Assembly (NCBI GenBank): GCA_020692235.1
Contig: JAIMKU010000003.1
Coordinates: 358 to 64,357 of the forward strand
Direction of reading: 5' to 3'
Source: Hydrogenophilus sp.
GTDB taxonomy: Bacteria; Pseudomonadota; Gammaproteobacteria; Burkholderiales; Thiobacillaceae
Length of the DNA stretch: 64,000 bases
Position 1 is the stretch's first letter, and every line of letters starts with the position of its first letter. Position numbers and translations under genes: made by a program. Positions 15,741-53,320 of the stretch are shown in pieces. The notes under the pieces are model-generated. The model did not search any database. It saw only the letters and a program-made list of their open reading frames with translations, and had not been told where the DNA came from.

Positions 15741-16565
15741 CTAGTACTCCTCCGGCAGATTCTTCAACTGAGCCCACGAATAGACCGGCCCTTTGACGCA
15801 TACGTAGTCCTTGCCGACATTGCAGCGGCCGCACTTGCCCAGGCCGCATTTCATCTTGTTTTCCAGGGTCGTGTAGATCTGCTCGTCGGCGAAGCCAAGC
15901 TGGCTCAGATTCTGAATCACATACTTAATCATGATCGGCGGCCCACAGGTGACGGCGATGGCGTTATCGGGCGAAGGTTCCTTGTCCATCACGTTGGCCG
16001 GCACAAAACCGCAGTAGGCATCCCAGCCATCCTCGGCCTTGTCCACCGACAAATGGACGTCAGCGACGCCACGCAGCTTTTCCAGCTCCGACTTGTACAT
16101 GATGTCGCGCGGCGAACGGCCACCGTAGAACACGGTGATATTCTTGAACAGGTCGCGTTGCGCCACCGCCGTGGTAATCACCGGCCAGATCGGCGCCAGA
16201 CCGCTACCGCCGCCGATGAAACAAAGATTTCTGCCCCGCCAGTCATCGACCGGGAAACTGTTGCCGTAGGGGCCGCGAATACCGACCACGTCGCCCACCG
16301 CCAGATCGTGGAAGGCGGCGCTGACCCGCCCCACCCGCATGATGGAAAACTGCTTGTAGTCCTTGACCAGCGGCGAGGAGGCGATCGAGATCATCATTTC
16401 GCCGCGCCCGAACACCGATAGCATGGCGCACTGGCCGCACTCATGTTCGAAGCTGCCGCCGTTCAGCGGCTCGACCCGGAAGGTCTTGATAGCGCGTTCG
16501 CCGGGCACCTCTTCCTTGATGAAGGTGATCCGGGCCAGTTCTGGCAGATAGATGTTAGCCGGCAT
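15741..16565 (-). CDS. flxA: FlxA/AsrB-like FAD/NAD(P)-binding oxidoreductase
   Basis: 274 aa; GQCAMLS, RGPYGNSF, GGGSGLAP, CGPPIM, MKCGLGKCGRC (2Fe-2S). Confidence 0.85.
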   Translation of the reverse strand: MPANIYLPELARITFIKEEVPGERAIKTFRVEPLNGGSFEHECGQCAMLSVFGRGEMMISIASSPLVKDYKQFSIMRVGRVSAAFHDLAVGDVVGIRGPYGNSFPVDDWRGRNLCFIGGGSGLAPIWPVITTAVAQRDLFKNITVFYGGRSPRDIMYKSELEKLRGVADVHLSVDKAEDGWDAYCGFVPANVMDKEPSPDNAIAVTCGPPIMIKYVIQNLSQLGFADEQIYTTLENKMKCGLGKCGRCNVGKDYVCVKGPVYSWAQLKNLPEEY

Positions 16566-17589
16566 GTTCGGTTACCTTGTTGACCACATGGACGATGTCG
16601 ATCCCGACCGGGCAGTCGCTGATGCAGCGGCCGCAACCGGTGCATTGATGCATCCCGAAATTCTCGAAGAAATACTGAAACTTGTGGCACACCCGCTGGC
16701 GCAGCCGGGCACCGACGCTGGGCCTCGGATTGTGACCCGAGGTATGCATGGTGAAGTCGGGAAACTGGCAGTTGTCCCAGGTCCGTACCCGGCTGCCCTT
16801 GAGCGGCGCCGCACCGGTGACTTCGTCGTTGATATCGAAGCAGTGGCAAGTCGGGCACAGAAAGGTGCAGATGCCGCAGCCGATACAGGCTTGCGCCAGT
16901 TCTTCCCAGAGTGGCGACTTGAAACTGGCCTTGAGTTTGGCCGGCGCCCCATCAGCATCGTGAATCGCCCGTTGCGGCTGGGCGACGGCCTCGGCGTGCA
17001 GGTCTTTCAAGCGCTGGCGGTCAGCAACCTCCGGCTTCTTCAGCAGGTCACCCGCGACGGTCATCAATGCCTTGCCGGTCTCGGTGACCGCGGCCACGAA
17101 ATAGCGCTCGCCCAAGTCAGTCATCAGGACATCGAGACCGTCGCTGCCGACCGGCGAGCCGCCAACCGACAGGCAAAAGCAATTGCTGCTTACCGGCTTG
17201 TTGCAGGCCAGACCGACATAAGCCATGTTGTTGCGCCGCGTCTGATAGTAGGGGTCATCGACATGGTCGGCGAACACCCGATCCATGCGCACCGTGCCAC
17301 GACCGTCACAGGGACGCACGCCGAACGCCACGCGGCGCTTGCCTTGCGGCAGTTTCTGCGTCAATCGCGGCGCTTCGCCCTTGATCTGCTCGAAGGTGAA
17401 AAACACCTCCCGCTGGGGAAAAGCGAAGCCCTTGGGCGGCTGTTTGGTGTTGGGGTGATCGAGTCGGACAGCGCCGGCGACCGGCCGAAATGCCCAGACG
17501 TCGTCTTCGACCGCCGGCGCGAACGCATCCCAGTCGGTCAAGACGGCGATCCAGTCGTCCAGGCGTTGTTTATCGAGTATCTTTTCCAT
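16555..17589 (-). CDS. flxB: FlxB/AsrA-like 4Fe-4S dicluster protein
   Basis: Start MEKILDK at 17589; FGVRPCDG, CIGCGICTFLCPTCHCF, CTGCGRCISDCP. Confidence 0.85.
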   Translation of the reverse strand: MEKILDKQRLDDWIAVLTDWDAFAPAVEDDVWAFRPVAGAVRLDHPNTKQPPKGFAFPQREVFFTFEQIKGEAPRLTQKLPQGKRRVAFGVRPCDGRGTVRMDRVFADHVDDPYYQTRRNNMAYVGLACNKPVSSNCFCLSVGGSPVGSDGLDVLMTDLGERYFVAAVTETGKALMTVAGDLLKKPEVADRQRLKDLHAEAVAQPQRAIHDADGAPAKLKASFKSPLWEELAQACIGCGICTFLCPTCHCFDINDEVTGAAPLKGSRVRTWDNCQFPDFTMHTSGHNPRPSVGARLRQRVCHKFQYFFENFGMHQCTGCGRCISDCPVGIDIVHVVNKVTEHAG

Positions 17590-17593
17590 GCGC

Positions 17594-18625
17594 TTACCTG
17601 ATGAATTGACCGGGGTCGTCGTCGCGGAAGGAGGCCACCAGCGAGGGTCCGCCGATGCTCGCCCCAGGCTCATAGCCGAAGCGTTCGCGGGCCTCCAGTT
17701 CCATCTTGTTGTTGAGCAGGCGCAGCGGGATATTGACCGGGCAGACCCGTTCGCACTCACCGCAGTCGATGCAGCGGCCAGCCAGGTGCATCGCGCGCGT
17801 CATGTGGTAGGTGATGTTTTCGGAACGCACCGCCGAGCGCTCGATCCAGCGAATGCGATTGGCCTTTTCCTCGGCCGTGGTATCCGGCGCTACCGGGAAG
17901 GTGATGCTGTCCACCACGCACTCATCGCAGTAACACATCGGGCACACCGAGCGGCAGGCGAAGCAGCGGATGCAGCGCTCGAACTGACGGCGCCAGAATG
18001 CCCAGCGATCGACCGCACTGAGCGCCTCGAAACGGCCCAGCGCGGTAAATGGCGCCGCCAGTTGGCGTCCGGTCTTGTCCTCGCCGAACGCCACGTTGTG
18101 TTCCTTGGGGAAGGGCTCGCGGCATTCCAGGCAGCGATCCGCCATGACCTCACTGGCCGGCAACCTCACCTCACCCGCCGCGGTCGTGACAACCAGCTCG
18201 TCGCCGTCGAAGACGGCGCTCAATGCCTGGGCGCCATTCAGGAGCCGAGCCAGTTTGTATTCGACCAGTACGCCGCCACCTTCGCAGGACACGCCGATGA
18301 TGTAAACCTCATCGCGCTTGAAGTAGTGCTCCTGCATCAGCACGACGATGGCACGGGCGTCGCAGCCCTTGGCGATGATGGCGATAGGCAAGGTCGGGGT
18401 CCGTTGCGCATGGGCCAGCGCCTTGCGATCCTCGACCAGGTAGAGCGCCAGGTTGTGGAAGCAGGTGGCATCCCAGACCAATTCATCGGCCTGTTCCGGA
18501 TCGGTGATGGTGACCGGTTCGGCAAGCATGCCCCGGCTGCCGCGCCGGTAGCCGATGACGGCGCGAACCTCGCCCCTGGTCAACAGGTCGCGCGCCGCGT
18601 CACGGATACTCTGAACATCGATCAT
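17594..18625 (-). CDS. flxC: FlxC / FdhB-like 4Fe-4S protein
   Basis: 343 aa; KGCD, CIRCFACRSVCPMCYC, CIDCGECERVCP. Confidence 0.82.
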   Translation of the reverse strand: MIDVQSIRDAARDLLTRGEVRAVIGYRRGSRGMLAEPVTITDPEQADELVWDATCFHNLALYLVEDRKALAHAQRTPTLPIAIIAKGCDARAIVVLMQEHYFKRDEVYIIGVSCEGGGVLVEYKLARLLNGAQALSAVFDGDELVVTTAAGEVRLPASEVMADRCLECREPFPKEHNVAFGEDKTGRQLAAPFTALGRFEALSAVDRWAFWRRQFERCIRCFACRSVCPMCYCDECVVDSITFPVAPDTTAEEKANRIRWIERSAVRSENITYHMTRAMHLAGRCIDCGECERVCPVNIPLRLLNNKMELEARERFGYEPGASIGGPSLVASFRDDDPGQFIR

Positions 18626-19053
18626 GTGCGGTCCGCCTTCAATTTGTCCTGCGGCCCAAGCGGCTTGAGGTCGGCGACAAAGTCCTTGACGACCTGGGCG
18701 TACTTGGCGCCTTCGGCGGCCGACACCCAGGACATCCGGAGCCGATCCGGCTCGACGCCGACCATCTCAAGCAGTTCCTTGATTAAGTAAATCTTGCGCC
18801 GCGCCAGGTAGTTGCCCTCGATGTAGTGGCAGTCGCCGATATGGCAGCCCGACAGCAGGACGCCGTCCGCCCCCTTGTTGAAGGCCGACAGGATGTAGAG
18901 CGGCGAAATGCTGCCCGAGCATGGTACGGTGATCGGCGTCGCGTTGGCCGGGTACTGAATCCGCGAGACTCCGGCCAAGTCGCTGCCCGCCGACGAGCAC
19001 CACTTGCACAGGAAGGCGACGATCTTGGGTTCGTAAGCTTGTTCTTCCGACAT
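18622..19053 (-). CDS. flxD: FlxD/MvhD 2Fe-2S subunit
   Basis: FLCKWCS, VPCSG, GCHIGDCHY, WVSAAEG. Start set at MSEEQ. Confidence 0.92.
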   Translation of the reverse strand: MSEEQAYEPKIVAFLCKWCSSAGSDLAGVSRIQYPANATPITVPCSGSISPLYILSAFNKGADGVLLSGCHIGDCHYIEGNYLARRKIYLIKELLEMVGVEPDRLRMSWVSAAEGAKYAQVVKDFVADLKPLGPQDKLKADRT

Positions 19054-19067
19054 CGGTTTCCCTTCCA

Positions 19068-21017
19068 TCAAGCCAAACAGGCTTCGATCATCTCGAAGAC
19101 CTGCATCTGGGTGGCATTTTTAACCTCGATGGCGGCGCGCAGGCAGGTGGCCGTGCAACTGCCGCAACCTTCGCAAAGCACTTCGTTCACTACTGCCTTG
19201 CCGTTCTCCAGCCGGATCGCGTGGTAGGGGCAGGCGGTGACGCACATCTCGCAGCCGGTGCAATGGGAGCGGCGCACGCGGGCGACGGTTGGCGCATGGC
19301 TGAGGGTCGCCTGCGACAGCAACGCGATCACCTTGGCGGCGGCGGCGCCGGCCTGGGCAACGGTTTCGGGAATGTCCTTCGGGCCTTGGGCGGCACCGGC
19401 CAGGAAGATGCCGGCGGTGACGCTTTCGACCGGCCTCAGCTTGGGGTGGGCCTCAGCCAGGAAGCCATCCTTGTCGCGGCCGATCTTGAGCACCTTGGCG
19501 GCCTGAGCCGTACCCTTGGAGGGTTGCATGGCGAGTGCCAGCACCACCATGTCGGCGTCGATCTCGACGTTCTGGCCGGTCAGCGTGTCGGTACCGAGCA
19601 CCTTGACCTTGCCGTTATGCCGGTAGAGTTTGGAAACGCGACCGCGCAGATAAATGGCCCCGTCCTCCTCCATGGTGCGCTGCACAAACTCCTCGTAGCC
19701 CTTGCCGCCGGAGCGGATGTCGATGTAGAACACATAGGCGCGGCCATCCGGGACATGGTGTTTGTAGAGGGTGGCGTGTTTGGCGGTGTACATGCAGCAA
19801 ATCTTCGAGCAGTAGGCGCAGTGCTGAGCCGGGTCGCGCGAGCCGACACACTGGATGAACACCACGTCCTTGGGCACCTTGTGGTCGGAGGGTCGCAGCA
19901 CATGACCGCTGGTTGCGCCCGAGGCCGAACACAGACGCTCGAATTGCAGGCCATCGAGCACGTCCTCGACCTTGCCGTAGCCGTACTCGGCAATATTTTC
20001 CTGGGGATAGAGATCGAAGCCGGTGGCCACGACGATGGCGCCCACCTCTTCGACCACCGTCTCGGGCCGCATGTCATAGTTGATCGCATCGGCCTCGCAA
20101 GCATCCTTGCACTTGCCGCAACGGATCGGGTTCAAACCCAAACACGCCTCCTCGTCGAGCGTGTAGCTGGCCGGGATCGCCTGCGCATAAGGGATGTAGA
20201 TGGCGCGTCGGGCGGTCAGGCCAAGCTCGTATTCGTTGGGCACCACCACCGGGCAGACCTGGGTGCAGTCATCGCAGATATTGCACTTCTCGGGATCGAC
20301 AAAGGTCGGCTTCTTGAGAATTTTGGCCTTGAAGTTGCCCACCGAGCCGGAGACTTCCTGCACCTCGCAGTAGGTCATTACCTTGATCTTGGGGTGACGC
20401 GACACCTCCACCATCTTGGGCGACAGGATGCACTGCGAGCAGTCCAGGGTGGGGAAGGTTTCGGAGAGCTGGAGCATGTGGCCGCCGAGGGTGGCCTGTC
20501 TCTCGACCAGGATCACCTCCAGACCGGCGTTGGCCATATCGAGGGATGCCTGGATGCCGGCGATGCCGCCACCGATGACCATCACTCGGCGGGTGACCGG
20601 GACGGCAATCGGCTCCAGTGACTGGTTGCGGCCGGCCCGGCGCACGGCGCTGCGCGAAATCTTGATCGCCTTCTCGGTGCCCACATCGCGATCCTTGTGC
20701 ACCCAGGCGCACTGCTCGCGAATGTTGGCGATTTCGCAGGTGAAGCCGCTGATACCGGCACGGGTGGTGTTATCGCGAAAGGTCTTCTCATGCAGTGACG
20801 GCGAACAGCAGGAGACCACGACGCTATCCAACTGGTTATCCTTGATCGCCTGAATGACCGCGTTCTGACCGGGGTCGGAACACATGTAGACGTAGTCCTG
20901 GGAATAGACGACGGTCTCCTCGGCGGACATCTCCTTGACCACTCGCGCCACATCGACCGTGGCGGCGATGTTGTTGCCGCAGTGACAGACGAATACCCCA
21001 GTGCGCTTTTTGGTCAT
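19068..21017 (-). CDS. hdrA: Heterodisulfide reductase subunit A (flavin-based bifurcating subunit)
   Basis: 649 aa; VFVCHCG, NIREQCAWVH, VIGGGIAG, TFPTLDCSQC, CSKICCMY, several CxxCxxC ferredoxin motifs. Confidence 0.95.
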   Translation of the reverse strand: MTKKRTGVFVCHCGNNIAATVDVARVVKEMSAEETVVYSQDYVYMCSDPGQNAVIQAIKDNQLDSVVVSCCSPSLHEKTFRDNTTRAGISGFTCEIANIREQCAWVHKDRDVGTEKAIKISRSAVRRAGRNQSLEPIAVPVTRRVMVIGGGIAGIQASLDMANAGLEVILVERQATLGGHMLQLSETFPTLDCSQCILSPKMVEVSRHPKIKVMTYCEVQEVSGSVGNFKAKILKKPTFVDPEKCNICDDCTQVCPVVVPNEYELGLTARRAIYIPYAQAIPASYTLDEEACLGLNPIRCGKCKDACEADAINYDMRPETVVEEVGAIVVATGFDLYPQENIAEYGYGKVEDVLDGLQFERLCSASGATSGHVLRPSDHKVPKDVVFIQCVGSRDPAQHCAYCSKICCMYTAKHATLYKHHVPDGRAYVFYIDIRSGGKGYEEFVQRTMEEDGAIYLRGRVSKLYRHNGKVKVLGTDTLTGQNVEIDADMVVLALAMQPSKGTAQAAKVLKIGRDKDGFLAEAHPKLRPVESVTAGIFLAGAAQGPKDIPETVAQAGAAAAKVIALLSQATLSHAPTVARVRRSHCTGCEMCVTACPYHAIRLENGKAVVNEVLCEGCGSCTATCLRAAIEVKNATQMQVFEMIEACLA

Positions 21018-21577
21018 GATGCCGCACCGCCCGCGTTCAAGGTATTGATGCCGTGCTCATAACCCTTCTCGAAGGCCTTGATATTGGCCTTCAGAAAACG
21101 GTCGGGCACCAGGCCGGGCAGCGCCTTCTTCATGGCTTCGGCGGACACCACTTTGGTCACCGCGGTCAAGAAGCCCAGCGCCACCAGGTTGGTGAACAGC
21201 CGATTGCCCACTTCCTCGGCGAAACGGGTCGCCGGCACGCGATAGAGTTCGAGCTCAGGATGCTCGCCGCTTAGTTTCACCAGGTCCTGTTCGACGATCA
21301 GAATGCCGCCCTTGGGCAACTCACCGTAATACTTGTCGTAGGCCTCCTGGGATAGCGCCAGGAGAATCCCGGGGTGGGTGATGTAGGGATAGAGGACGCG
21401 TTCGTCGGAAACCACGAGTTGGGCCGCGCAGGCGCTGCCACGAGCCTCCGGGCCGAAGCTCTGGGTCATGGTGGCAAACTTGTCGTCATACAGAGACAGT
21501 GCCTTGCCGGTAATCAGGGCGCAGCGGATGATGCCCTGACCACCGAATCCCGAGAACCTGATTTCATGAGTGCTCAT
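21014..21577 (-). CDS. korG: 2-oxoacid:ferredoxin oxidoreductase gamma subunit
   Basis: IRFSGFGGQG, QSFGPEARG. Confidence 0.88.
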   Translation of the reverse strand: MSTHEIRFSGFGGQGIIRCALITGKALSLYDDKFATMTQSFGPEARGSACAAQLVVSDERVLYPYITHPGILLALSQEAYDKYYGELPKGGILIVEQDLVKLSGEHPELELYRVPATRFAEEVGNRLFTNLVALGFLTAVTKVVSAEAMKKALPGLVPDRFLKANIKAFEKGYEHGINTLNAGGAAS

Positions 21578-21588
21578 GCGCTCGCTTC

Positions 21589-22752
21589 CTACTTACGGGT
21601 CTTCTTGGCCGCAGCGGTTGCCGGGGCCTTTTTGGCCACAACCTTGACGGCGGATTTCCTGGCCACAGCGGTTGCCGAAGCCTTTTTCGCCGCTGCCTTG
21701 ACGGCAGGTTTCTTGGCCGCAGGTTTCTTGGCGGCGACCTTTTTTACCGGGGCCTTGGTTGCGACCTTCTTCACTGCCTTCACTGCCGCCTTTTCGGATG
21801 CGGCCTGTTCCGCCGCCAGCACGACAGCCCGACGGGCGGCAACCCTCTCCTTTTCGGCCTTTTCTTCGGCTTCCCGCTCTGGAATGGTCTTGCCATAAAG
21901 CTGGTAATCGTCGCCCACTAACCTGACGGCGCATTTATCGACCGCCTCCAGATAAGTAGGCTTGGCCTTGTCAACAAACTTGCCGACGACGATCTTGCCC
22001 TGGAAGTCGATAGCCGTCTCGCGGGTATCGCAGCCATGCTTGAGTACCGTGTTTTCCTGATAGTACTGAAGCATGTCGACGCCGTCGCCGAGGCGGTTGC
22101 GGCGCAGATAGAGCGTGGTGCAGGGCGAGATGATCTCGATGAAGGAGAAGCCCTTGTGGACCAGCGCTTCCTCCATCGACTGGGTGATATTACGCACATT
22201 CACCGAGGTCCAGCGGGCAATATAGGTGGCGCCGGCGGCATCGGCCAGTAACGGCAGACTGAACGGGTATTCGTAGTTACCGTAGGGCGTGGTCGAGGTG
22301 ATTGCCGAGGTTGGCGTGGTCGGCGTCACTTGGCCGCCGGTCATGCCGTAGGTGAAGTTATTGTTGCAGATGACCACAATATCCATGTTGCGCCGGGCGG
22401 CATGGATCAAGTGGTTGCCGCCGATACCCACCAGGTCGCCCTCACCACTGAACACCACCACCGTCAACTCGGGGTTGGCGAGCTTGATGCCGGTGGCCAC
22501 TGGAATGGCGCGGCCATGCGTGGTGTGGATCGAATCGAAATCGACATAGCCCGCCACCCGTCCGGTGCAACCGATGCCCGACACCACGACCAGCTTATTG
22601 TGGTCGATGCCGCTGCGTTTGATGGCCTCGGCGAAGGCGTTCACCTCGGAGCCAATGCCGCATCCGGGGCACCAGATATGCGGCATCCGCTCCATGCGCA
22701 GGACCCCGGACATGGGGCTGTCGTGTTTGAATTTTCCAATATCGGTAGTCAT
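21589..22752 (-). CDS. korB: 2-oxoacid:ferredoxin oxidoreductase beta subunit with a ~95 aa Lys/Ala-rich C-terminal extension
   Basis: WCPGCG, SGIGC, HTTHGR, GEGD..IG (ThDP), NNFTYGMTGGQ..PT, SPCTT; tail ...KKVAAKKPAAKKPAVKAAAKK... Confidence 0.9.
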   Translation of the reverse strand: MTTDIGKFKHDSPMSGVLRMERMPHIWCPGCGIGSEVNAFAEAIKRSGIDHNKLVVVSGIGCTGRVAGYVDFDSIHTTHGRAIPVATGIKLANPELTVVVFSGEGDLVGIGGNHLIHAARRNMDIVVICNNNFTYGMTGGQVTPTTPTSAITSTTPYGNYEYPFSLPLLADAAGATYIARWTSVNVRNITQSMEEALVHKGFSFIEIISPCTTLYLRRNRLGDGVDMLQYYQENTVLKHGCDTRETAIDFQGKIVVGKFVDKAKPTYLEAVDKCAVRLVGDDYQLYGKTIPEREAEEKAEKERVAARRAVVLAAEQAASEKAAVKAVKKVATKAPVKKVAAKKPAAKKPAVKAAAKKASATAVARKSAVKVVAKKAPATAAAKKTRK

Positions 22753-23915
22753 TGATTGGCCTTTCTGATGGCATCCAGGATGACCTCCGGGTCATGCACC
22801 GCACCACCACAGTGATTGACGCTGATAACCTTGCTCTTGCCGGCGGCACAGCGTTCCACCTCAAGCACCATCTGGCCGTAGTTGATCTCCGGCACCACGA
22901 ATGCCTTCACCTTACCAGTCAGTTCGCGGATGCGCTTCTCGCAGAACGGCCAGATGGTGATGAGCCGCAAGGAGCCGACCTTGATACCTTCCCTGCGGGC
23001 GTCCTGGATGGCCTTGACGGCGATGCGGGAGGTGATGCCATAGGACACCACCACGACATCGGCACCGTCGATCTGATCTTCGTCGAGACGGATGATCTGG
23101 TCGGCATTACTGCGTATCTTCTCCATCAGGTGGGTGATCACGATCTTGCTCTGCTCGGCGGTCATGACCGGGTAGCCGCGTTCGTCGTGAGTCAGACCGG
23201 TGATGTGGAAATGGTAGCCATCGCCGCACTGAGTCATGGGATGACCGCCTTGACCATCGAACTTGTATGGTCGGAAGTCGGCCTTGGGGCCACTGTAATT
23301 ATTGCGCGGTACCACCTGTATCTGGTCGGCCGGCGGGATGACGACCTTCTCGTGCATGTGGCCGACGGTTTCGTCGCTCAGGATGATGACCGGCACCCGG
23401 TAGAACTCGGACAGATTGAAGGCCTCGACGGCGACATCGAAGCATTCCTGCGGGCTATCCGGCGACATGGCGATGATGGCGTAATCGCCATGCGAGCCAT
23501 AGCGCGCCTGCATCATGTCCTGCTGGGCGGTCAATGTCGGCAGGCCGGTCGACGGGCCGCCACGCTGCACGTTGGCGATCACCAAGGGGGTTTCGGTCAT
23601 GGCCGCCAGGCCAATGTTCTCCACCATCAGGGAGAAGCCGGGGCCACAGGTCACGGTCATCGCCTTGCGACCGCCCCAGGCGGCGCCGATCAGGGCGGCG
23701 ATGGAGGCCAGCTCGTCCTCCATCTGAATGAATAGCGCACCGACCTCGGGCGCCCGCTCGGCGAAGCGCTCGGCCGTCTCGGTTGAGGGTGTGATGGGAT
23801 AGCCGGCAAAGAACCGGCAGCCGGCCGCCAGGGCGCCCTCGGCGATGGCTTGGTCACCATCCATGAAGTGCGGGCCGCTGTCGACCCCTTTGGGATCTGC
23901 GCTAACGGTGTTCAC
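22749..23915 (-). CDS. korA: 2-oxoacid:ferredoxin oxidoreductase alpha subunit
   Basis: FFAGYPITPSTE, QMEDELAS, VQRGGPSTGLPT; GTG start overlaps the korD stop (GTGA). Confidence 0.9.
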   Translation of the reverse strand: MNTVSADPKGVDSGPHFMDGDQAIAEGALAAGCRFFAGYPITPSTETAERFAERAPEVGALFIQMEDELASIAALIGAAWGGRKAMTVTCGPGFSLMVENIGLAAMTETPLVIANVQRGGPSTGLPTLTAQQDMMQARYGSHGDYAIIAMSPDSPQECFDVAVEAFNLSEFYRVPVIILSDETVGHMHEKVVIPPADQIQVVPRNNYSGPKADFRPYKFDGQGGHPMTQCGDGYHFHITGLTHDERGYPVMTAEQSKIVITHLMEKIRSNADQIIRLDEDQIDGADVVVVSYGITSRIAVKAIQDARREGIKVGSLRLITIWPFCEKRIRELTGKVKAFVVPEINYGQMVLEVERCAAGKSKVISVNHCGGAVHDPEVILDAIRKANQ

Positions 23916-24175
23916 TTTTCTGCTTCCCCTTTCGCAATTTCGTCATCCTTGGTCACGAAGATAGAAAACTCCGGACAGATCATTTGGCAATACTGGCAGT
24001 CATGGCATTTTTCCGGGTTCTTGGCATAGGGCGGGTGATAGCCCTTGGCATTGAATTCGGGCGAGATATCCAGCACGTTGGTCGGACAAAACTGGACACA
24101 AAAACCGCAGCCCTTGCACCAGATGTCGTTGATATAAACCGTGCCATGGAGTTGCTTGAGATTATTGAAGAACAC
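23912..24175 (-). CDS. korD: Ferredoxin-like delta subunit (2x 4Fe-4S)
   Basis: 87 aa; WCKGCGFCVQFCP and CHDCQYCQMICP. Confidence 0.88.
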   Translation of the reverse strand: MFFNNLKQLHGTVYINDIWCKGCGFCVQFCPTNVLDISPEFNAKGYHPPYAKNPEKCHDCQYCQMICPEFSIFVTKDDEIAKGEAEK

Positions 24176-24185
24176 GCCGCATCCC

Positions 24186-25064
24186 TCAGGCCAGGCCGCG
24201 GCCGGCCAAGGTCGGCCGCGGATCGATGTGATGGAGGTCGAAACGTAGCGCCGTATCGTCGCAGCCGAACGCCAACGCCATCAACTGGGTAAAGTAAAGC
24301 ACCGGCAGGTGATAAAAGTCCGGATTAAGGCGACGCGCGTCATCCTGCCGGAAGTCCAGATTGAAGGCGCACAGCGGGCAGCTCACCACCACCAGGTCGG
24401 CCTGTTCCTCGTGCGCCGAACCCATGATCTTGTCGGTGCGCTCAGCGATGATTTCCGGCTTGTCGACGGTGTGATAGGCGCCGCAACATTCGGTCTTCAA
24501 GGGAAACTGGACCGGGGTGGCGCCGAGGGCCGTAATCAGGTCCTCCATAATCGTCGGGTTTTCGACATCGTCGAAGGCGACCTCTTTCGGGCGCGCCAGC
24601 AGGCAGCCGTAGTAGCAGGCGACGCGCAGGCCCGCGAGCGGTTTTTTCACCTTCTCGGCCAGCTTGTCGAAACCGATCCGGTCGCGCAGGAATTCGAGTA
24701 GGTGCAGGACGTCAACATCGCCCTGGTATTTGGTTTCCTCTTGGTACAGAAACTCGTTGATGGTTGCCAGCGCATCGGGGCGCTTCTTGACGTCGATATT
24801 GGCACGTTTGAGGGTGTTGTAACACATGGCGCAAGTGGTCATGAACTCGCTGGCTTGGGCCTCTTTGACGCGAATCAGGTTGGTCACCGGCGCCACCCGA
24901 TTCATGATGTTGTCGGAGCCCAGCGCGTGTACCGTGCCACAACAGTTCCAGCGCGCCAGCTCCTCGACCTCGACATCCAGTTTCGCCATCGACGAGATGG
25001 TGGAAACGTCGAAATTCCGGGCCTGGTTCTTCAGTGTGCAGCCGGGATAATAAATAAGTTTCAT
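24186..25064 (-). CDS. hdrB: Heterodisulfide reductase subunit B
   Basis: 292 aa; YYPGC, WNCCG, YYGCLL, ECCGA, SCPLC (two CCG domains). Confidence 0.93.
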   Translation of the reverse strand: MKLIYYPGCTLKNQARNFDVSTISSMAKLDVEVEELARWNCCGTVHALGSDNIMNRVAPVTNLIRVKEAQASEFMTTCAMCYNTLKRANIDVKKRPDALATINEFLYQEETKYQGDVDVLHLLEFLRDRIGFDKLAEKVKKPLAGLRVACYYGCLLARPKEVAFDDVENPTIMEDLITALGATPVQFPLKTECCGAYHTVDKPEIIAERTDKIMGSAHEEQADLVVVSCPLCAFNLDFRQDDARRLNPDFYHLPVLYFTQLMALAFGCDDTALRFDLHHIDPRPTLAGRGLA

Positions 25065-25083
25065 CGGCGTATTTCCATTTCCA

Positions 25084-25503
25084 TCAGGATGTCTGCTTGC
25101 GCAGGGCGCTGATCAGGGCGATCGGCGGCAACGCGCCGATCGCCTCGGGAGATAGCGCCTGAATCTTGAGCTGGTCGTCGCGGTTAACTGTGCCCAGCAC
25201 GGTTTGGCGCAACGCTTCGATAACCTCGGCGATCCGGATATCCTTCGGGCAGCGGCTATTGCAGGTCATGCAGGATACGCAAATCCAGATGGCGCGGGTC
25301 GCCAGCAACTGTTTCTCCATGCCGAGTTGCGCCATGCGGATAATCCGGTTGGGCAGCACATCCATGTGCGCCGCCATCGGGCAACCGGCGGAGCACTTAC
25401 CGCACTGGTAGCAGGCCAGCAACTTCTGGCCGCTGACCTGTTCGATCTTGGCCACAAAGGTACCGCCAAACCGAGGCGAAGAAATGTGTAAGGTGGTATT
25501 CAT
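25084..25503 (-). CDS. hdrC: Heterodisulfide reductase subunit C (short)
   Basis: CYQCGKCSAGCP, IWICVSCMTCNSRCP. Start MNTT at 25503. Confidence 0.9.
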   Translation of the reverse strand: MNTTLHISSPRFGGTFVAKIEQVSGQKLLACYQCGKCSAGCPMAAHMDVLPNRIIRMAQLGMEKQLLATRAIWICVSCMTCNSRCPKDIRIAEVIEALRQTVLGTVNRDDQLKIQALSPEAIGALPPIALISALRKQTS

Positions 25504-25511
25504 GGTCCGCC

Positions 25512-26069
25512 TCAGTATTTCCCATCCATGCGGAACTCGGGCGAATCGAGCCACAACCCGACGTTCTGCACACTGTCCAGTTGGGCCTGGAGACTGTCGT
25601 AATGGAAGCCCTCTTCCTGGATTATTTTGCCGATCAGACTGAGCAGATCGCGATCCGTGGTGTGTTCTGAGATTTCCTTGTATATCTGAATGGCGCGCCG
25701 TTCCATCTCCATGGCCAAGCGCAGTGCCTGGGTATCGTCGGCAACCACTTCGTGACCGCGTTGCACAACGGCCGCTTGCAGCTCAGCGATAGTCTTCGAT
25801 GGCTGGACGAGCGCCGCTTCCTGCTCGGCAAGCCGCTGCCACTCCTCTTCACCAATGAGCGCGGCAAACAGTGTGTGGGTTTCCGCCACATGTTCCGTCT
25901 CCGCTGCCGCCAGGCGCAGGAACATGGCCTTGCCGGTAGGGTTCTGAGTTAACTCGGCCACATGACGGTAGAAACGCTCGCCGCCAAACTCGAAGCCGAT
26001 TGCGGTGCGCGCCAGTTCGATTACCTTATCGTCGATGTGAGTCATGGTTTTGACCGGCGCGTCAGGCAT
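25512..26069 (-). CDS. Ferritin-like / rubrerythrin-family di-iron protein
   Basis: EFGGERFY, ETEH, EMERRAIQIY, EEGFH di-iron-type motifs. Start overlaps the tfrA stop (ATGCCTGA) and has a GAGGA RBS. Confidence 0.8.
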   Translation of the reverse strand: MPDAPVKTMTHIDDKVIELARTAIGFEFGGERFYRHVAELTQNPTGKAMFLRLAAAETEHVAETHTLFAALIGEEEWQRLAEQEAALVQPSKTIAELQAAVVQRGHEVVADDTQALRLAMEMERRAIQIYKEISEHTTDRDLLSLIGKIIQEEGFHYDSLQAQLDSVQNVGLWLDSPEFRMDGKY

Positions 26070-27777
26070 CGGACCGATCCTCTTGCAGGCGGTTATGCAC
26101 CACCGAGGCGCCGGGCAGCACGTTGCCGCCACGCACCAGTTGCCGCTTTCTGACATCCTTGGGGGCGTAGGACGGCAACAGGATCGGGGCCACCAGATCG
26201 GTCTGCACGCCGGAATCAACCAGTTCCTTCTCGTAGTTATCGAGGTGTGCCAGGCTGAGTTTGCCGAGTTTGACGGTCTTGGCGTAGGCGCCGGCCGCCT
26301 GGCCGGCGCGCCGACCGAATACGTTGTAGTCGAGTACCGAATTGCCCATCAGCCGGTTGCGGCCATGCAGACCGCCGCTCGCTTCGCCGGCGACGTAGAG
26401 GCCGGGGATGTTGGTCTCGCAGCGGTCGTTGATCTCGACACCGCCGTTCTGGTAGTGCAGCGACGGGTAGACCAGCATCGGCAGTTTGTTGATGTCGATA
26501 CCGTAGCGGATGTACTGGCGGTACATGGCCGGGAACTGGTGGGCCACATAGCCTTCGCCGTGCAGCATGTCGATCAGCGGCGAGTCCAGCCACACGCCGA
26601 GTCGCCCCGACGGGGTCTCGATGCCGCCGCCGTTTTGCACACATTCGCGGATGATGGCCGAGGCCTCAATGTCGCGTGGCTCACGTGGGAAAACGAACAG
26701 CTCGCCATCCTTGTTCAGCGGTTGGCCGCCGGCACCACGTATCTTCTCGGTAATCAGGAAGCCTGCGATCTGCTCGGGGAAAGAGGCGCCGGTAGGGTGG
26801 TATTGCACCGAATCCATATACATCAGCTTGGCGCCGGCGCGGTAGGCCATCACCAATCCGTCGCCAGTGGCGCCATAGTGGTTGGTGGTGTCGAAGCCGC
26901 GAATGTGCAGGCGGCCGTAACCGCCGGTGGCGATCAGTGTGGACTTCGCCTTGACAGTAAAAAATTCTTCGCTGTCCATGCTGTAAAGAATGGCACCGGC
27001 GCAGCGGCCCTCGTCATCCATAATCAATTCCACCGCCGGCATGAATTCCTTGATGTCGATCATGTCGGGGTGGTTGCGCACCTCGTCCATCAGGGTGCGC
27101 ATAATCATGGCGCCGGTGTAGTCGCGGCACGAGACCATGCGCTTGCGCGAGGTGCCGCCGCCATGCAGCACCTGAATGGCGCCGTCTTCCTCCTTGTCCC
27201 ACACTACGCCCAGGTCTTCGAGCCACTTGACCACGCCGGGACCGTCTTCGGTGAGCGCCTTGACCAACTCCGGTTTATTCTCGAAGTGGCCGCCGCCAAT
27301 CGCGTCCAGATAGTGCCTGGTCGGCGAGTCGGTGCGCGACACGGCGGCCTGCATCCCACCCTGGGACATCATGGTATTGGCATCGCCCATACGTAGCTTG
27401 GTGGCGATCAGCGAGCGGATACCGTGTTGCTGCATGGCGGCCAGGGCGGCGTTGCAACCGGCACCGCCACCGCCGATGATGAGCAGGTCGGTTTCGATAT
27501 CCGGATGGTCGAGGTCCACCTGCTCGCTACGCAGCCAGGAGTGGGATTCCAGCAGATCCGCCACTTCGGTGGTCAGCTTTTCGCCCCGGTTGGGACCGAC
27601 GCGTACCGGCCGCAGTGCATCGGGTTTGTAGTCGGGATGAAAATTTTCCAGCACATTGCGCCGCTCTTCGGCGCTCATGGGCGGGTAAACGGGATCAGGC
27701 TTTCTGGCCAATTCCAGGCGAGCCGGCCGCGTCTGAACGACCTTGCGCAACGACTCTTCCATGTACTCTGGATACAT
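26062..27777 (-). CDS. tfrA: Soluble fumarate reductase flavoprotein (TfrA-like)
   Basis: 571 aa; IIGGGGAG, ANTMMSQGG, HGG.SRKR, QYHPT, TEKIRGAG, RDIEA, HYQNGG, LHGRNRLMGNS. Confidence 0.85.
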   Translation of the reverse strand: MYPEYMEESLRKVVQTRPARLELARKPDPVYPPMSAEERRNVLENFHPDYKPDALRPVRVGPNRGEKLTTEVADLLESHSWLRSEQVDLDHPDIETDLLIIGGGGAGCNAALAAMQQHGIRSLIATKLRMGDANTMMSQGGMQAAVSRTDSPTRHYLDAIGGGHFENKPELVKALTEDGPGVVKWLEDLGVVWDKEEDGAIQVLHGGGTSRKRMVSCRDYTGAMIMRTLMDEVRNHPDMIDIKEFMPAVELIMDDEGRCAGAILYSMDSEEFFTVKAKSTLIATGGYGRLHIRGFDTTNHYGATGDGLVMAYRAGAKLMYMDSVQYHPTGASFPEQIAGFLITEKIRGAGGQPLNKDGELFVFPREPRDIEASAIIRECVQNGGGIETPSGRLGVWLDSPLIDMLHGEGYVAHQFPAMYRQYIRYGIDINKLPMLVYPSLHYQNGGVEINDRCETNIPGLYVAGEASGGLHGRNRLMGNSVLDYNVFGRRAGQAAGAYAKTVKLGKLSLAHLDNYEKELVDSGVQTDLVAPILLPSYAPKDVRKRQLVRGGNVLPGASVVHNRLQEDRSDA

Positions 27778-27790
27778 CCTGATTCCCCTC

Positions 27791-28531
27791 TTATTCCGAA
27801 TCTCGTGCGTAATAGCGTTCCGACAAGGCTTCGCGGTCCATCGCCATCAGTTCGGCGTATTCCGCCTCATAGACACCCTCTTCCACCGCCTTGACGCGCT
27901 CCGCCAGTTCCGGGCTGTCCTTGCGCAGATAGCGGCCATAGAGGCGCTTCGCCAGGATGGCCATCAGGGGTTGGGTAATTTCGGCCGGGCAGCGCAACAT
28001 GCACAGACCGCAGACGACGCAGTCGAAGGACAGGTCCATCACCGCAGCGATGTCACCGCGCTTGGCGGCCTGGACGTAATCCATGACCTGGAGCCCCTGC
28101 GGACAGGACTTGGTGCAGGTGCCGCAGGCGACGCAGCGGAACACCGTCGGGTACATCTGCTGGATGGCGCTGACGTTCGGCCTGAGCTTCTCGATGTCGT
28201 AGATCGCCTTCTCGGCCGGAACAGAGGGTATCTGCGCCAGCGTCATGCCGTCCTCGACCAGGGTCATACAGGCCAGGCCGGCACGGATTTTGTAATCGCC
28301 GGGTAAACGGTAGAGGGTGGCGCAGGCGCCGCAATAGCCCTCGCGGCAACCGGCACCGCGGATGATCTGGTGGCCGGCATATTCGATGGCGCCCATGATG
28401 GTCGCCTCGGCCGGCACCTCATAGGCCTTGCCCATGATATATACCGTGATCAGTCGCTCCGCCGCCTCGCGCTCTCCGTCGACCGCCGAAGTCGATGGAC
28501 TGTTCGCTGTTCCCGCCGGCACGCCCGTCAT
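27791..28531 (-). CDS. tfrB: Fumarate reductase Fe-S subunit (TfrB-like, no membrane anchor)
   Basis: 246 aa; GCREGYCGAC...LAC (2Fe-2S), CVACGTCTKSCP, CVVCGLCMLRCP. Confidence 0.82.
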   Translation of the reverse strand: MTGVPAGTANSPSTSAVDGEREAAERLITVYIMGKAYEVPAEATIMGAIEYAGHQIIRGAGCREGYCGACATLYRLPGDYKIRAGLACMTLVEDGMTLAQIPSVPAEKAIYDIEKLRPNVSAIQQMYPTVFRCVACGTCTKSCPQGLQVMDYVQAAKRGDIAAVMDLSFDCVVCGLCMLRCPAEITQPLMAILAKRLYGRYLRKDSPELAERVKAVEEGVYEAEYAELMAMDREALSERYYARDSE

Positions 28532-28671: not shown

Positions 28672-28722
28672 ATCATAAAGAGCTTCGTTAAGGGTTGACA
28701 ATAGAGGATGTCGATATACGAT
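28672..28722. promoter_or_regulatory. Back-to-back sigma70-like promoters with overlapping -35 hexamers
   Basis: Plus strand: TTGACA (28695-28700)-N16-TACGAT (28717-28722). Minus strand: TTGTCA (28701-28696)-N18-TATGAT (28677-28672). Confidence 0.6.
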
Positions 28723-28828: not shown

Positions 28829-30841
28829 ATGGCCAAAGCCCCCGTTCGAGTCGCCGTAACTGGCGCCGCTGGGCAGATCGGTTATGCGCTGCTGCCTCGC
28901 ATTGCCAGCGGCGAAATGCTCGGCAAGGATCAGCCCATCATTCTGCAATTGCTCGAATTGCCCATGGACAAGGCGCAAAAGGCATTGAAGGGCATGATGA
29001 TGGAGCTGGAGGATTGCGCCTTTCCGCTCTTGATCGACATGATCGGCACCTCGGACCCCATGGTTGCCTTCAGGGATGCCCAACAAGCCTTGCTGGTCGG
29101 CGCCAAGCCGCGCGGCGCCGGCATGGAACGCAAGGATCTGCTGCTGGAAAACCCCAAGATTTTCATTGAACAAGGCAAGGCCATTGATCTGGTTGCCTCC
29201 CGCGACGTCAAGGTGGTGGTGCTCGGCAACCCATCCAATACCAACGCCCTCGTCACCATGAACGCGGCCAGGAGTCTGCCCAGAACCAGCTTCACCTCGT
29301 TGATGCGGTTGGACCACAATCGCGCCGCCGGCAAACTCGCGCAGCGCCTGGGCAAGCCGATCACCAGCATCGAAAATATGGTGGTGTGGGGCAATCACTC
29401 GCCCGCCATGTATCCGGACATCCGCTTTGCCACTATCGACGGCAAACATCCCCGTGAACTGCTGAACGAGGAAGACTGGTACCGGAGTGAATTCATCGAC
29501 GAGATTGGCAAACGCGGCGCCGCCATCATCGACGTCCGTGGCCTATCCTCCGCCGCCTCCGCAGCAGTCGCGGTCATCGACCATATGCGTGACTGGAACC
29601 TGGGGTCCAACGGCCACTGGGTCACCATGGGCGTCGTCTCCGACGGCTCCTACGGTATCCCGGTGGGCATGATCTACGGTTTTCCCTGCACCACCGCCAA
29701 CGGCAAGTGGGAGATCGTCAAGAACCTGGAAATCGACGCCTTCTCGCGCACCAAAATGGACGCCTCGCTGAAAGAACTGCAAGAGGAATACATGATCGCG
29801 TCGAGTATCTTTGCGCCCGAAATCGCCGCGCAAAACGTCAAAGACCTGCTTCACCCAACCGACGTGCTCTACGCCGGTGGCCGCCCTTCGCCGCTGCTGG
29901 CTGCCTGCGAACACTATGCCGGCAGCGAGAAGCTACTTAGAAAAGCGCTCAAGATTCAAACCGAGCTACTGACCAACGAGCAGCCAGTCTTCGACATCAC
30001 CGCCGATTGTGAGGACGGCGCCCCCGCCGGCAAGGAACGGGAACACGCGGTCATGATCGCCGATCTGATCCTGTCCGACGACAATCGTTATGACCGCGTC
30101 GGCGTGCGCATCCACGATGTCGACCATCCGCACTGGCGCGACGAGTTGGAGATCATCATCGGCCGGGCCGGTCAGCGCGTGGCCTACATCGGCCTGTCCA
30201 AGCCGGAAAACGCCGACGACGTCCAAACCCAGATCAGCGCGCTCAATGAGCTAAGGGACCAATACGGCATTACCCGCGAGATACCCGTTCACGTCCTGAT
30301 CGAGACCCCGGGGGCGCTCCATGAAGTGTGGCAAATCGCCGGCCTACCGCATATCGAGGTCCTCAATTTCGGCATCATGGACTTCGTTTCCGAGCATCAC
30401 GGCGCCATTCCCGCCGCCGCCATGAGCTCGCCCGGCCAATTCAGCCACTCGCTTATCGTCCGCGCCAAGAGCGAGATCGTCGCCGCCGCACTGGCTCACG
30501 GCATCGTACCCAGCCACAACATCACCACCGAGATACGCGACCTCAACGTGGTGCGGGAAGATGCTCGCCGCGCCCGAATGGAGTTCGGCTTCCTGCGCAT
30601 GTGGAGCATCCATCCGAACCAGATACTGCCCATCGTCGAAGCCATGCAGCCGAACTTTGCCGAAGTCAACGAGGCCATCACCCTACTGATCGCCGCCCAA
30701 AACACCGCCTGGGGGCCAATCCAATGGGAAGGCAAGCTGCACGATCGTGCCTCCTACCGCTACTACTGGGAGCTACTACAACGCGCCCGCGCAACCGGGA
30801 TGGACATCCCGGCGGAGGTCGTCCAGCGTTTCTTTGCCTGA
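28829..30841 (+). CDS. mdh: Fusion of malate dehydrogenase and an HpcH/HpaI-CitE-family CoA-ester lyase
   Basis: 670 aa uninterrupted ORF. MDH half: [30 protein letters not shown]. Lyase half from about aa 335: [33 protein letters not shown]. Confidence 0.88.
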
Positions 30842-30942
30842 ACCGTTACCCAAACGGATCAGGCAGAATCAATCGACCCAAGCGATCGGCCTATCCGAGC
30901 CCGGCCCGTTTCATTGAACGTGTCGGCCATCCGAATACGCCG

Positions 30943-30965
30943 TGTGCGTAAATCTGACGTACAAT
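30943..30965 (+). promoter_or_regulatory. Probable autoregulatory operator overlapping the -10 of the TA operon
   Basis: TGTGCGT-N7-ACGTACA imperfect palindrome (1 mismatch) overlapping TACAAT (30960-30965). Confidence 0.5.
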
Positions 30966-30995
30966 GCTCTCGTCCGTAAATCGGGAGCAACAGCC

Positions 30996-31262
30996 ATGTC
31001 AGCAACCACCACCAATGAATCGTCGCGCATCAATTTGCGCACCAGCGCCGATACCAAAGCCATGATCGAGCGCGCCGCCGCGCTGATGGGGACGACCGTT
31101 TCCGGCTTCATGCTGCAGAACGCATACGAGGCGGCGCGGCGCGTGGTGTCGGACTACGACACCCTCATGCTCAGCCAGCGCGACTTTGAGGCATTCGCCG
31201 CCTCCATGGAAAAACCGCCCAAACCGAAAGCCGCATTGCGCAAACTCATGGCGCGCCGCTAA
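30996..31262 (+). CDS. DUF1778-family (TacA/AtaR-like) antitoxin
   Basis: 88 aa; SSRINLRTS...IERAAALMGTTVSGFML...LSQRDFEAFAASMEKPPKPKAALRKLM. Confidence 0.9.
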   Translation: MSATTTNESSRINLRTSADTKAMIERAAALMGTTVSGFMLQNAYEAARRVVSDYDTLMLSQRDFEAFAASMEKPPKPKAALRKLMARR

Positions 31263-31264
31263 AC

Positions 31265-31759
31265 GTGGCAGTCATCCAACTGCTCGGCAGGCAGCACAAC
31301 CGCAACGGGTTCGATTGCGGCGACGCGGCGCTGAACGATTTTTTGCAGCGCCAGGCAGGCCAGCAACAACGGCGCGGCTTCGGTAAAACCTATGTGGCAC
31401 TTGCCGATGATGGCGTAACCGTCATTGGCTTCGTCACAGTAAGCGCGGGCCAGATCGCCACGGCAGCGCTGCCCGCCCAGTCAAAGCTACCGCGCCACCC
31501 CGCCCCCATTTTGCGCATCGGTCGCCTGGCGGTGGATGCCCGCCATCAGGGCAAAGGCATCGGCCAAGACCTGCTGGCATTCGCATTGCGCCTGGCGGTG
31601 GAATTTTCGCAGCGCGTGGGGCTATATGCCGTTGTGGTCGATACCAAACACGAGAAGGCCAAAGCATTTTATGCCAAGCATGGATTCATCGCCTGCATGG
31701 ATAGTCCGCTGGCGCTGTATCTGCCGGTTGCCACGTTGGAGCAGGCTGCTGGGACTTAA
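31265..31759 (+). CDS. GNAT acetyltransferase toxin (TacT/AtaT-like)
   Basis: 164 aa; FDCGDAALNDFL, ILRIGRLAVDARHQGKGIG, VVVDTK...AFY.KHGF. Confidence 0.9.
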   Translation: MAVIQLLGRQHNRNGFDCGDAALNDFLQRQAGQQQRRGFGKTYVALADDGVTVIGFVTVSAGQIATAALPAQSKLPRHPAPILRIGRLAVDARHQGKGIGQDLLAFALRLAVEFSQRVGLYAVVVDTKHEKAKAFYAKHGFIACMDSPLALYLPVATLEQAAGT

Positions 31760-49430: not shown

Positions 49431-49566
49431 CTCCGACCTCGATTTGATTGCCGCCGGTGCATTGAGTACCGGTGTCGTCGCCGACCAGGGGGTGATAGGC
49501 CAAGGCAGGACCAGACAGGCCGAGCGCGGCGGCGAAAACGGTCAACAGCTCGAATCGGGTAGCCAT
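49423..49566 (-). pseudogene. 5' remnant of an exported/outer-membrane transporter-family protein
   Basis: Signal peptide plus YHPLVGDDTGTQ..GGNQIE, then an abrupt stop inside the RND remnant. Confidence 0.55.
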
Positions 49567-49574
49567 GAAGCCGG

Positions 49575-53301: not shown

Positions 53302-53320
53302 TCCAAGAAGGGGAAAGATA

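Follow-up and report, generated by a model that had tools for sequence, protein, structure and literature searches.

The closest described counterpart of the locus considered here is a gene cluster known from tubeworm symbionts, from Thioflavicoccus mobilis and from the genome RIFOXYD12_FULL_61_37, for which Rubin-Blum, Dubilier and Kleiner (2019; PMC6315080) proposed a complex bifurcating NADH electrons to 2-oxoglutarate:ferredoxin oxidoreductase (OGOR) and fumarate reductase, and had already stated its energetic significance; the idea was restated in 2024 (Mitchell et al., 2024; PMC11636981) and in a survey of 2026. A similar cluster lies on the 64,000-nucleotide stretch analysed here (Hydrogenophilus sp., assembly GCA_020692235.1, contig JAIMKU010000003.1, positions 358 to 64,357; hereafter the window), where 14 minus-strand genes run unbroken from 28531 to 15741 in the order tfrB-tfrA-(ferritin-like)-hdrC-hdrB-korDABG-hdrA-flxDCBA. 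Our preferred reading, held with moderate confidence, is that these genes, the first 14 of a longer operon, code for a fumarate reductase that is soluble, lacks an anchor and is connected to a module for flavin-based bifurcation. The published cluster shows the same genes and interleaving, followed by type II aclBA, acn and idh of the tricarboxylic acid cycle in its reductive form (rTCA). The order in RIFOXYD12_FULL_61_37 (locus L064) is identical to that of the window, including the rubrerythrin gene (rbr), which the Fig. 2 legend of Rubin-Blum et al. (2019) also lists, and the Lamellibrachia symbiont loci (L074, L076) and Thiococcus have the window order without rbr. The window differs in its lineage, being part of an aquifer metagenome-assembled genome (MAG), in an Ala/Lys-rich tail on KorB, and in that pntAB and rnf, which the published cluster integrates, were not seen among the scanned open reading frames (ORFs) of the window, a scan that was incomplete for small ORFs and that leaves room for both elsewhere in the genome. 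The cluster and the bifurcation hypothesis are already known, and the window is a further instance from an aquifer lineage near Gallionellaceae and Sulfuricellaceae; judged from sequence, the interpretation appears reasonable and somewhat strengthened here, as the rediscovery of a published hypothesis.

Single parts of the system have other counterparts. TfrAB of Methanothermobacter (NF004900/NF004898) is likewise soluble and anchor-less, with non-covalent FAD, one [2Fe-2S] and two [4Fe-4S] clusters and a CCG module in the system, whereas in the window the CCG module is a separate HdrB accompanied by HdrC, TfrA has 93 additional N-terminal residues, and the scores lie below the family cut-offs. 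To our knowledge, the coenzymes M and B (CoM, CoB) are not to be expected in bacteria. The Fdh-Hdr-Fmd supercomplex of Methanospirillum hungatei, which we take to be PDB 7BKB, offers a precedent for an HdrABC core wired directly to a low-potential CO2-fixing enzyme without free ferredoxin, and the window HdrA and HdrB match it with E = 1e-184 and 7e-43; that complex uses formate, CoM-S-S-CoB and Fmd, while NADH, fumarate and OGOR are proposed for the window system. FlxABCD-HdrABC of Desulfovibrio vulgaris is a NADH dehydrogenase/heterodisulfide reductase (Ramos et al., 2015, as cited in later papers), and the same seven-subunit domain set occurs in the window (FlxA, FlxB, FlxC, MvhD-like FlxD, full-length HdrA, HdrC and CCG-type HdrB). 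The window order is, however, inverted, hdrCB and hdrA-flxDCBA being split by korDABG; instead of DsrC, fumarate is proposed to accept the electrons, by way of TfrAB; no alcohol dehydrogenase gene adjoins the cluster, and the organism belongs to an aerobic-to-microaerobic lithoautotroph lineage and not to the sulfate reducers. An independent proposal of fumarate-ferredoxin coupling concerns the 'succinate operon' of Pseudoclostridium thermosuccinogenes, with fumarase, Flx-Hdr and an AB-type fumarate reductase (PMC7282089, citing Koendjbiharie and van Kranenburg, 2019), which differs from the window in belonging to a fermentative Firmicute, in having no interleaved kor genes and in not serving the rTCA cycle. 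FrdABCDE of Hydrogenobacter thermophilus (Miura et al., 2008, as summarised elsewhere) is a five-subunit, NADH-dependent fumarate reductase which, like the enzyme proposed for the window, is soluble, NADH-linked and serves the rTCA cycle; its accessory subunits differ from those of the window, and it is not reported to bifurcate.

The 14 genes of the run, in coding order, are the following.

28531-27791, minus strand: tfrB-like Fe-S subunit, 246 aa, with a [2Fe-2S] and two [4Fe-4S] motifs and without CCG domain.
27777-26062, minus strand: tfrA-like fumarate reductase flavoprotein, 571 aa, with a 93-aa N-terminal extension and a short C-terminus.
26069-25512, minus strand: rbr, rubrerythrin/ferritin-like four-helix protein, 185 aa, no Cys.
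25503-25084, minus strand: hdrC, 139 aa, two [4Fe-4S] motifs, 8 Cys.
25064-24186, minus strand: hdrB, 292 aa, two CCG domains.
24175-23912, minus strand: korD, delta subunit of a four-subunit 2-oxoacid:ferredoxin oxidoreductase, 87 aa, two [4Fe-4S] motifs.
23915-22749, minus strand: korA, alpha subunit, 388 aa, matching PRK08659.
22752-21589, minus strand: korB, beta subunit binding thiamine pyrophosphate (TPP), 387 aa, with an Ala/Lys-rich C-terminal tail.
21577-21014, minus strand: korG, gamma subunit, 187 aa.
21017-19068, minus strand: hdrA, FAD/Fe-S flavoprotein, 649 aa, full length, where bifurcation is proposed to take place.
19071-18622, minus strand: flxD, MvhD-like [2Fe-2S] protein, 149 aa from a TTG start (143 aa from ATG 19053 in the public gene call).
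18625-17594, minus strand: flxC, Fe-S protein, 343 aa, 16 Cys.
17589-16555, minus strand: flxB, Fe-S protein, 344 aa, with likeness to AsrA and sulfhydrogenase beta.
16565-15741, minus strand: flxA, FAD/NAD(P)H-binding subunit with a [2Fe-2S] site, 274 aa.

The interleaved genes named in a preliminary description, made from the sequence alone, were all identified on the minus strand by Pfam and NCBIfam scans, and public gene calls on the same contig (GCA_017973955.1, JAEMOC010000056.1; aquifer metagenome) list the same genes. From tfrB to flxA the 13 spacings (positive for a gap, negative for an overlap) are +13, -8, +8, +19, +10, -4, -4, +11, -4, -4, -4, +4 and -11 nt, the widest gap thus being at hdrC/hdrB and the largest overlap at flxB/flxA; the junctions 21014/21017, 22749/22752, 23912/23915 and 18622/18625, to which the preliminary description had drawn attention, are exact overlaps of 4 nt. 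That description omitted the ferritin-like ORF that separates tfrA from hdrC. The gene run it delimited at 15741-28531 is real and was ended too early, as the same strand continues past flxA with four further genes separated by gaps of 100, 87, 37 and 34 nt; the 14 genes would form the start of an rTCA operon of about 21 kb. That no membrane anchor is encoded holds within the cluster: a hydropathy scan gave no convincing transmembrane segment in any product of 28531-15741, and the highest value belongs to TfrB and falls on its cluster-binding motif. The genes and sites surrounding the run are these.

15640-14360, minus strand: type II aclB, downstream of flxA.
14272-11570, minus strand: type II aclA, 900 aa.
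11532-9583, minus strand: acn, aconitase.
9548-7323, minus strand: idh, monomeric isocitrate dehydrogenase (IDH).
28829-30841, plus strand: malate dehydrogenase (MDH) fused to an HpcH/HpaI (CitE-like) domain, 670 aa, divergent from tfrB.
28672-28722, both strands: promoter-like sites in the tfrB/mdh spacer, TTGTCA-18-TATGAT on the minus and TTGACA-16-TACGAT on the plus strand.

Co-transcription, which had also been claimed, agrees with several observations. The two sites of the tfrB/mdh spacer, lying back to back, are the only sigma-70-like sites within 11-30 kb, and intrinsic terminators inside the operon are in no excess over shuffled sequence. An Rfam scan of the whole window gave no match to a leader or riboswitch. 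In two aquifer metatranscriptome runs, contigs of relatives (90-95% identity) together span all of 11-29 kb; a single one bridges tfrA-rbr-hdrC-hdrB (24793-26370), others cross the junctions hdrB/korD (24003-24351), korD/korA (23760-24011), korG/hdrA (20979-21352) and flxC/B/A (15967-17939), and flxA/aclB and aclB/aclA are bridged as well. Since these contigs derive from relatives and carry-over of DNA is possible, they are supportive rather than conclusive of one transcription unit. For the homologous cluster of Endoriftia, intergenic RNA coverage and common regulation indicate operon-like co-expression (Mitchell et al., 2024; PMC11636981).

The Fe-S subunit TfrB binds its [2Fe-2S] cluster through C62, C67, C70 and C88 and carries two CxxCxxCxxxC [4Fe-4S] motifs, all 12 cysteines being invariant across 16 homologues. 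Domain scans and alignment found no CCG domain in its 246 residues, nor in the best 150 representatives of its family. The methanogen TfrB model (488 aa), by contrast, aligns with positions 19-187 to TfrB and with positions 263-464 to the adjacent HdrB, for which reason methanogen TfrB looks like a fusion of the two, and the proposal of the preliminary description that HdrBC stands in for the missing CCG part seems a fair reading. The name tfrBA that it used needs qualification: both proteins are fumarate-reductase-like, but they score far below the curated methanogen cut-offs (338 bits against 718 for TfrA, 37 against 385 for TfrB), so "thiol:fumarate reductase" is better taken as a label of convenience than as demonstrated membership, and, with a Fe-S subunit devoid of the thiol-handling CCG domain, it is a misleading one. 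In TfrA the catalytic residues are present (H327 in HPTG, R347 in RGAGG, H441 in HYQNGG, and R473/R475), as is an NRL motif, and Asn134 stands at the position of the covalent-FAD histidine of SdhA/FrdA, a pattern typical of soluble reductases with FAD predicted to be non-covalent. The usual C-terminal helical domain is shortened. Residues 1-93 form an N-terminal extension without cysteines, which 78 relatives share and which neither the methanogen TfrA model nor SdhA/FrdA has; it could serve as a subunit-docking arm.

The ferritin-like gene rbr is translationally coupled to tfrA, its ATG overlapping the tfrA stop by 8 nt. Its product in the window shows the ligand set E, ExxH, E, ExxH; among 50 orthologues the glutamate ligands are kept, while both histidine positions are mostly Arg or Gln, and a C-terminal motif, YDxxQxQxDS...WLDxPEFRxD, is nearly invariant. 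A role as conserved di-iron peroxidase is doubtful with both His ligands replaced in most orthologues, and the pattern suggests a structural or adaptor function rather than a conserved di-iron catalyst; to call the protein an adaptor or a protective subunit is speculative.

HdrB retains all ten CCG cysteines (9, 41, 42, 78, 81 and 154, 193, 194, 229, 232) and matches the HdrB model (E = 5e-53) and the SdhE model of MFR (E = 1e-48), in the latter case with 166 bits against a cut-off of 500; unlike in type-E SdhABE/MFR, no SdhF or membrane subunit accompanies it. Residues 2-646 of HdrA align to 2-648 of 5ODC chain A (E = 9e-193), with the FAD domain and the N-terminal, inserted and C-terminal Fe-S domains, and the protein is by this alignment a full-length homologue of the structurally characterised bifurcating HdrA of methanogens. 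The HdrA2 model, a fusion of HdrA and MvhD, spans HdrA and FlxD. FlxA combines a NAD(P)H/FAD domain with a [2Fe-2S] site, and FlxB and FlxC are Cys-rich weak paralogues; the Flx assignment is made at domain level, the libraries searched holding no Flx-specific curated model.

The alpha, beta (TPP), gamma and delta (two [4Fe-4S]) Kor subunits are encoded together. The only Kor model passed was PRK08659, a generic alpha model (546 bits for KorA, cut-off 411); the best matches are OGOR-type models, all below their cut-offs (379 vs. 579, 246 vs. 364 and 62 vs. 125 bits), with PorA-type models scoring far lower; 2-oxoglutarate, as opposed to pyruvate or other 2-oxoacids, is the putative substrate. 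The C-terminal tail of KorB (21589-21900, minus strand) comprises about 100 Ala/Lys-rich residues of low complexity and resembles histone H1 or AlgP. Within the Gallionellaceae-like clade most loci encode a KorB of 383-490 aa (about 310-326 in a few), while its length elsewhere is 288-339 aa; in the tail region, 123 nt are missing from the metatranscriptome contigs of relatives. The tail was rejected as a docking domain on account of its low-complexity composition, variable length and restriction to that one clade, and its weak match to valyl-tRNA synthetase is compositional.

From the gene content, cofactor motifs, operon structure and conservation observed, we infer a donor, an electron path and a bifurcation as follows. 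FlxA would accept hydride from NAD(P)H, and FlxB, FlxC and FlxD would relay the electrons to the FAD of HdrA. The high-potential electron would travel from HdrC to HdrB, TfrB and the non-covalent FAD of TfrA, reducing fumarate; the low-potential electron would leave through the ferredoxin domains of HdrA to ferredoxin, or directly to KorD, and drive the reductive carboxylation of succinyl-CoA by KorABG. The net reaction would be 2 NADH + fumarate + 2 Fd(ox) -> 2 NAD+ + succinate + 2 Fd(red) (Fd, ferredoxin), whose 1:1 split would suit what the two reductive steps of the rTCA cycle require. Textbook potentials are about -320 mV for NAD, about +30 mV for fumarate and about -450 to -500 mV for the ferredoxins of the rTCA cycle, and with these the sum from NADH to fumarate and ferredoxin would be exergonic. 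The bifurcating interpretation of the preliminary description is hence plausible and partly supported, with bifurcation itself, the use of NADH over NADPH and the inclusion of Kor in a supercomplex remaining putative.

A scan of species-representative genomes by TfrB alignment returned 543 loci, the best 80 of which were fetched and the window proteins mapped onto them; TfrB identity among these goes down to 61%. In 55 of the approximately 62 loci long enough to judge, hdrC-hdrB-korDABG-hdrA is contiguous, through three permutations. The order tfrBA-rbr-hdrCB-korDABG-hdrA-flx occurs in 40 loci, among them a 'Hydrogenophilales' MAG with a TfrB 97% identical to that of the window, many MAGs of Gallionellaceae, Sideroxydans, Sulfuricellaceae, Nitrosomonadales and Rhodocyclaceae, and loci of Thiotrichales, Thiodictyon and RIFOXYD12_FULL_61_37; rbr is found in 40 of the 55 core-keeping loci. 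The same order without it is seen in 8 loci (Lamellibrachia symbionts, Sedimenticolaceae, Thiococcus pfennigii and alphaproteobacteria), and 7 loci from MAGs labelled Aminicenantes or Eubacteriales have the permuted order hdrCB-korDABG-hdrA-flxDCBA-tfrBA. Seven Rhodomicrobium-type loci read flxBA-aclBA-idh-x-tfrBA-hdrC, the rest falling beyond the 10-kb flank, and 18 of the 80 were too short to judge. The cluster layout is real and well above chance. The window TfrB shares 80-91% identity with Gallionellaceae/Sulfuricellaceae MAGs and 65-70% with symbionts and Chromatiaceae. The complete rTCA/Hdr-Flx cluster is common in groundwater MAGs of Gallionellaceae, Sideroxydans, Sulfuricellaceae and Nitrosomonadales (loci L002-L048).

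The family of CCG-less TfrB numbers 681 representatives at 50% clustering, and the genomic context of nine distant members was examined. Desulfofundulus thermobenzoicus has a stand-alone hdrC-hdrB-tfrB-tfrA, and neither hdrA nor flx lies less than 9 kb away; a Bathyarchaeota contig reads hdrCB-tfrBA-hdrA, an Anaerolineales (Chloroflexi) MAG korDABG-hdrA::mvhD-hdrCB-tfrBA without flx genes, and in an archaeal MAG hdrA::mvhD-korDABG is divergent from hdrCB-tfrBA. Methanomassiliicoccales carry hdrA-mvhD-frhB-tfrBA, preceded in another contig by NuoEF-like genes. The AB-type fumarate reductase repeatedly accompanies HdrA modules with differing donor modules, and Kor joins in at least three very distant lineages; these contexts, which are genomic only, support the functional link more broadly. 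The Anaerolineales and archaeal carriers belong to organisms not known for rTCA autotrophy. Archaeal-type clusters (L084, 4102-11375; L089, 1-11377) consist of fdx-hdrA (about 1000 aa)-mvhD-frhB-tfrB-tfrA, one of them beginning with NuoE/F/G-like genes. As hdrBC is absent from them, they suggest HdrA systems that are fed by F420H2 or NADH and end directly in a Tfr-type fumarate reductase.

Several points weigh against the preferred reading. The disulfide-reductase-type site of HdrB is complete and may leave room for a thiol/disulfide intermediate; neither a Kor-Hdr nor a Tfr-Hdr gene fusion occurs in the 80 related loci, the sole fusion among 150 TfrB-family representatives being TfrB::TfrA; and the RNA support comes from contigs of relatives with the possible DNA carry-over noted above. 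In a Gallionella MAG (locus L037, 10001-20739, counted among the 18 short loci) a flxA remnant of 64 residues is all that separates tfrBA from aclBA-acn-idh, as if rbr-hdrCB-kor-hdrA-flxDCB had been deleted en bloc, although this may be an assembly artefact, and three WOR-3 contigs show fumAB-tfrBA without adjacent Hdr genes. In Endoriftia the differential expression of tfrAB departs from that of the other cluster genes (Mitchell et al., 2024; PMC11636981), the bifurcating complex still figures as a suggestion in the survey of 2026, and the literature searched yielded no biochemical or structural test of it.

A more far-reaching version of the preferred reading is a Flx-Hdr-Tfr-Kor megacomplex, in which OGOR would be physically included and the HdrA electron would pass to KorD without free ferredoxin, Tfr-HdrCB-HdrA-Kor, met with in Proteobacteria, an Anaerolineales MAG and an archaeal MAG, being an old cross-domain module with exchangeable donors (Flx, FrhB or NuoEF-like) and the ferritin-like protein, with its degenerate di-iron site, the adaptor. 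We regard it as rather unlikely in this full form: direct docking of Kor is speculative and the weakest link of the whole proposal, with no Kor-Hdr fusion to support it. If true, one machine would carry out both reductive rTCA steps, and bacteria would have an equivalent of the Fdh-Hdr-Fmd complex known from methanogens.

It is also unlikely, in our opinion, that the enzymes are co-regulated but separate, linked by a thiol/disulfide carrier and interleaved through selection for co-expression only. FlxABCD-HdrABC would then bifurcate from NADH to soluble ferredoxin and to a disulfide, belonging either to a DsrC-like protein or to a small thiol; once reduced, this thiol would feed fumarate reduction, and Kor would work on free ferredoxin. 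The alternative has already been stated in the literature, and the ten heterodisulfide-cluster cysteines of HdrB, the lack of fusions and the somewhat different regulation of tfrAB in Endoriftia all agree with it. TfrAB alone, however, has no recognisable thiol-oxidising site, its TfrB being devoid of CCG, and the operon holds one hdrBC pair only, which would need both to reduce and to re-oxidise the carrier; for these two reasons a free thiol shuttle between separate enzymes seems less likely than a TfrAB-HdrBC assembly. Moreover, family scans and the public gene table gave no DsrC-like or TusE-like gene in the operon, and every Hdr-bearing arrangement seen has hdrC right after tfrA, or hdrB right before tfrB.

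We consider it improbable that HdrCB-TfrBA by itself makes up a soluble fumarate reductase of four subunits with its own donor, comparable to a split methanogen TfrAB or to a soluble cousin of type-E SdhABE/MFR, with HdrA-FlxABCD acting independently. The stand-alone genes of D. thermobenzoicus are what such an enzyme would look like, and HdrB matches the SdhE model almost as well as its own. Against this, an HdrA without HdrBC would lose its usual high-potential exit, hdrA and flx accompany hdrCB and tfrBA in 55 of the judgeable loci through three rearrangements, and the archaeal tfrBA placed right beside hdrA-mvhD without hdrBC tie Tfr to HdrA itself. Very improbable is, finally, the oxidative, confurcating direction, in which Kor would oxidise 2-oxoglutarate and the merged electrons would reduce NAD+ and/or fumarate in a branched or oxidative TCA cycle: Kor-type enzymes are reversible, and the Anaerolineales and archaeal kor-hdrA-hdrCB-tfrBA lack an adjacent NADH module, but in the window the operon also holds the genes for type II ATP-citrate lyase, aconitase and IDH, with MDH divergently adjacent, TfrA is without covalent FAD as is typical of reductases, and expression in Endoriftia follows rTCA conditions (Mitchell et al., 2024).

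Other features of the window were recorded besides the cluster. The divergent mdh fusion, whose lyase domain is malyl-CoA or citramalyl-CoA lyase-like, has full-length matches (at least 71% identity) in the same divergent position in 13 related loci of Hydrogenophilales, Gallionellaceae, Sideroxydans, Sulfuricellaceae and similar MAGs. Right after it, at 30942-31759 (plus strand), Pfam and the gene table give a TacA-like antitoxin gene followed by a GNAT acetyltransferase gene, a pair that looks like a TacAT-type toxin-antitoxin. An ORF of 311 aa (48766-49701, plus strand), adjoining a TetR-family regulator, aligns to no more than positions 156-369 of the AcrB/AcrD/AcrF model, which has 1021, and is probably a fragment of a gene for a resistance-nodulation-division efflux pump. 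ATP sulfurylase (sat) is followed at 51447-55330 (plus strand) by a 669-aa FAD_binding_2 protein, probably AprA, and the two genes fit a sulfur-oxidising lifestyle; a 695-aa ORF antisense to the FAD_binding_2 gene has no family match and is probably spurious.

To the published hypothesis the present analysis adds a spread far wider than reported, with a TfrB relative in 543 species-representative genomes (many of them MAGs of Gallionellaceae, Sulfuricellaceae and Sideroxydans), the recognition that the Tfr name misleads, and the association of Tfr, HdrCB, HdrA and Kor across domains. For carbon fixation, a 2023 pangenome study of Gallionellaceae examined RuBisCO alone, and the cluster appears to be under-reported in the lineage near Gallionellaceae and Sulfuricellaceae. 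Should the soluble fumarate reductase indeed be wired to the bifurcating module, NADH would suffice to drive the reverse TCA cycle at two points, the reduction of fumarate and the carboxylation that depends on ferredoxin, the former, being exergonic, paying for the low-potential ferredoxin; this would explain the ferredoxin source of microaerophilic sulfur and iron oxidisers and lower the energy cost of the pathway.

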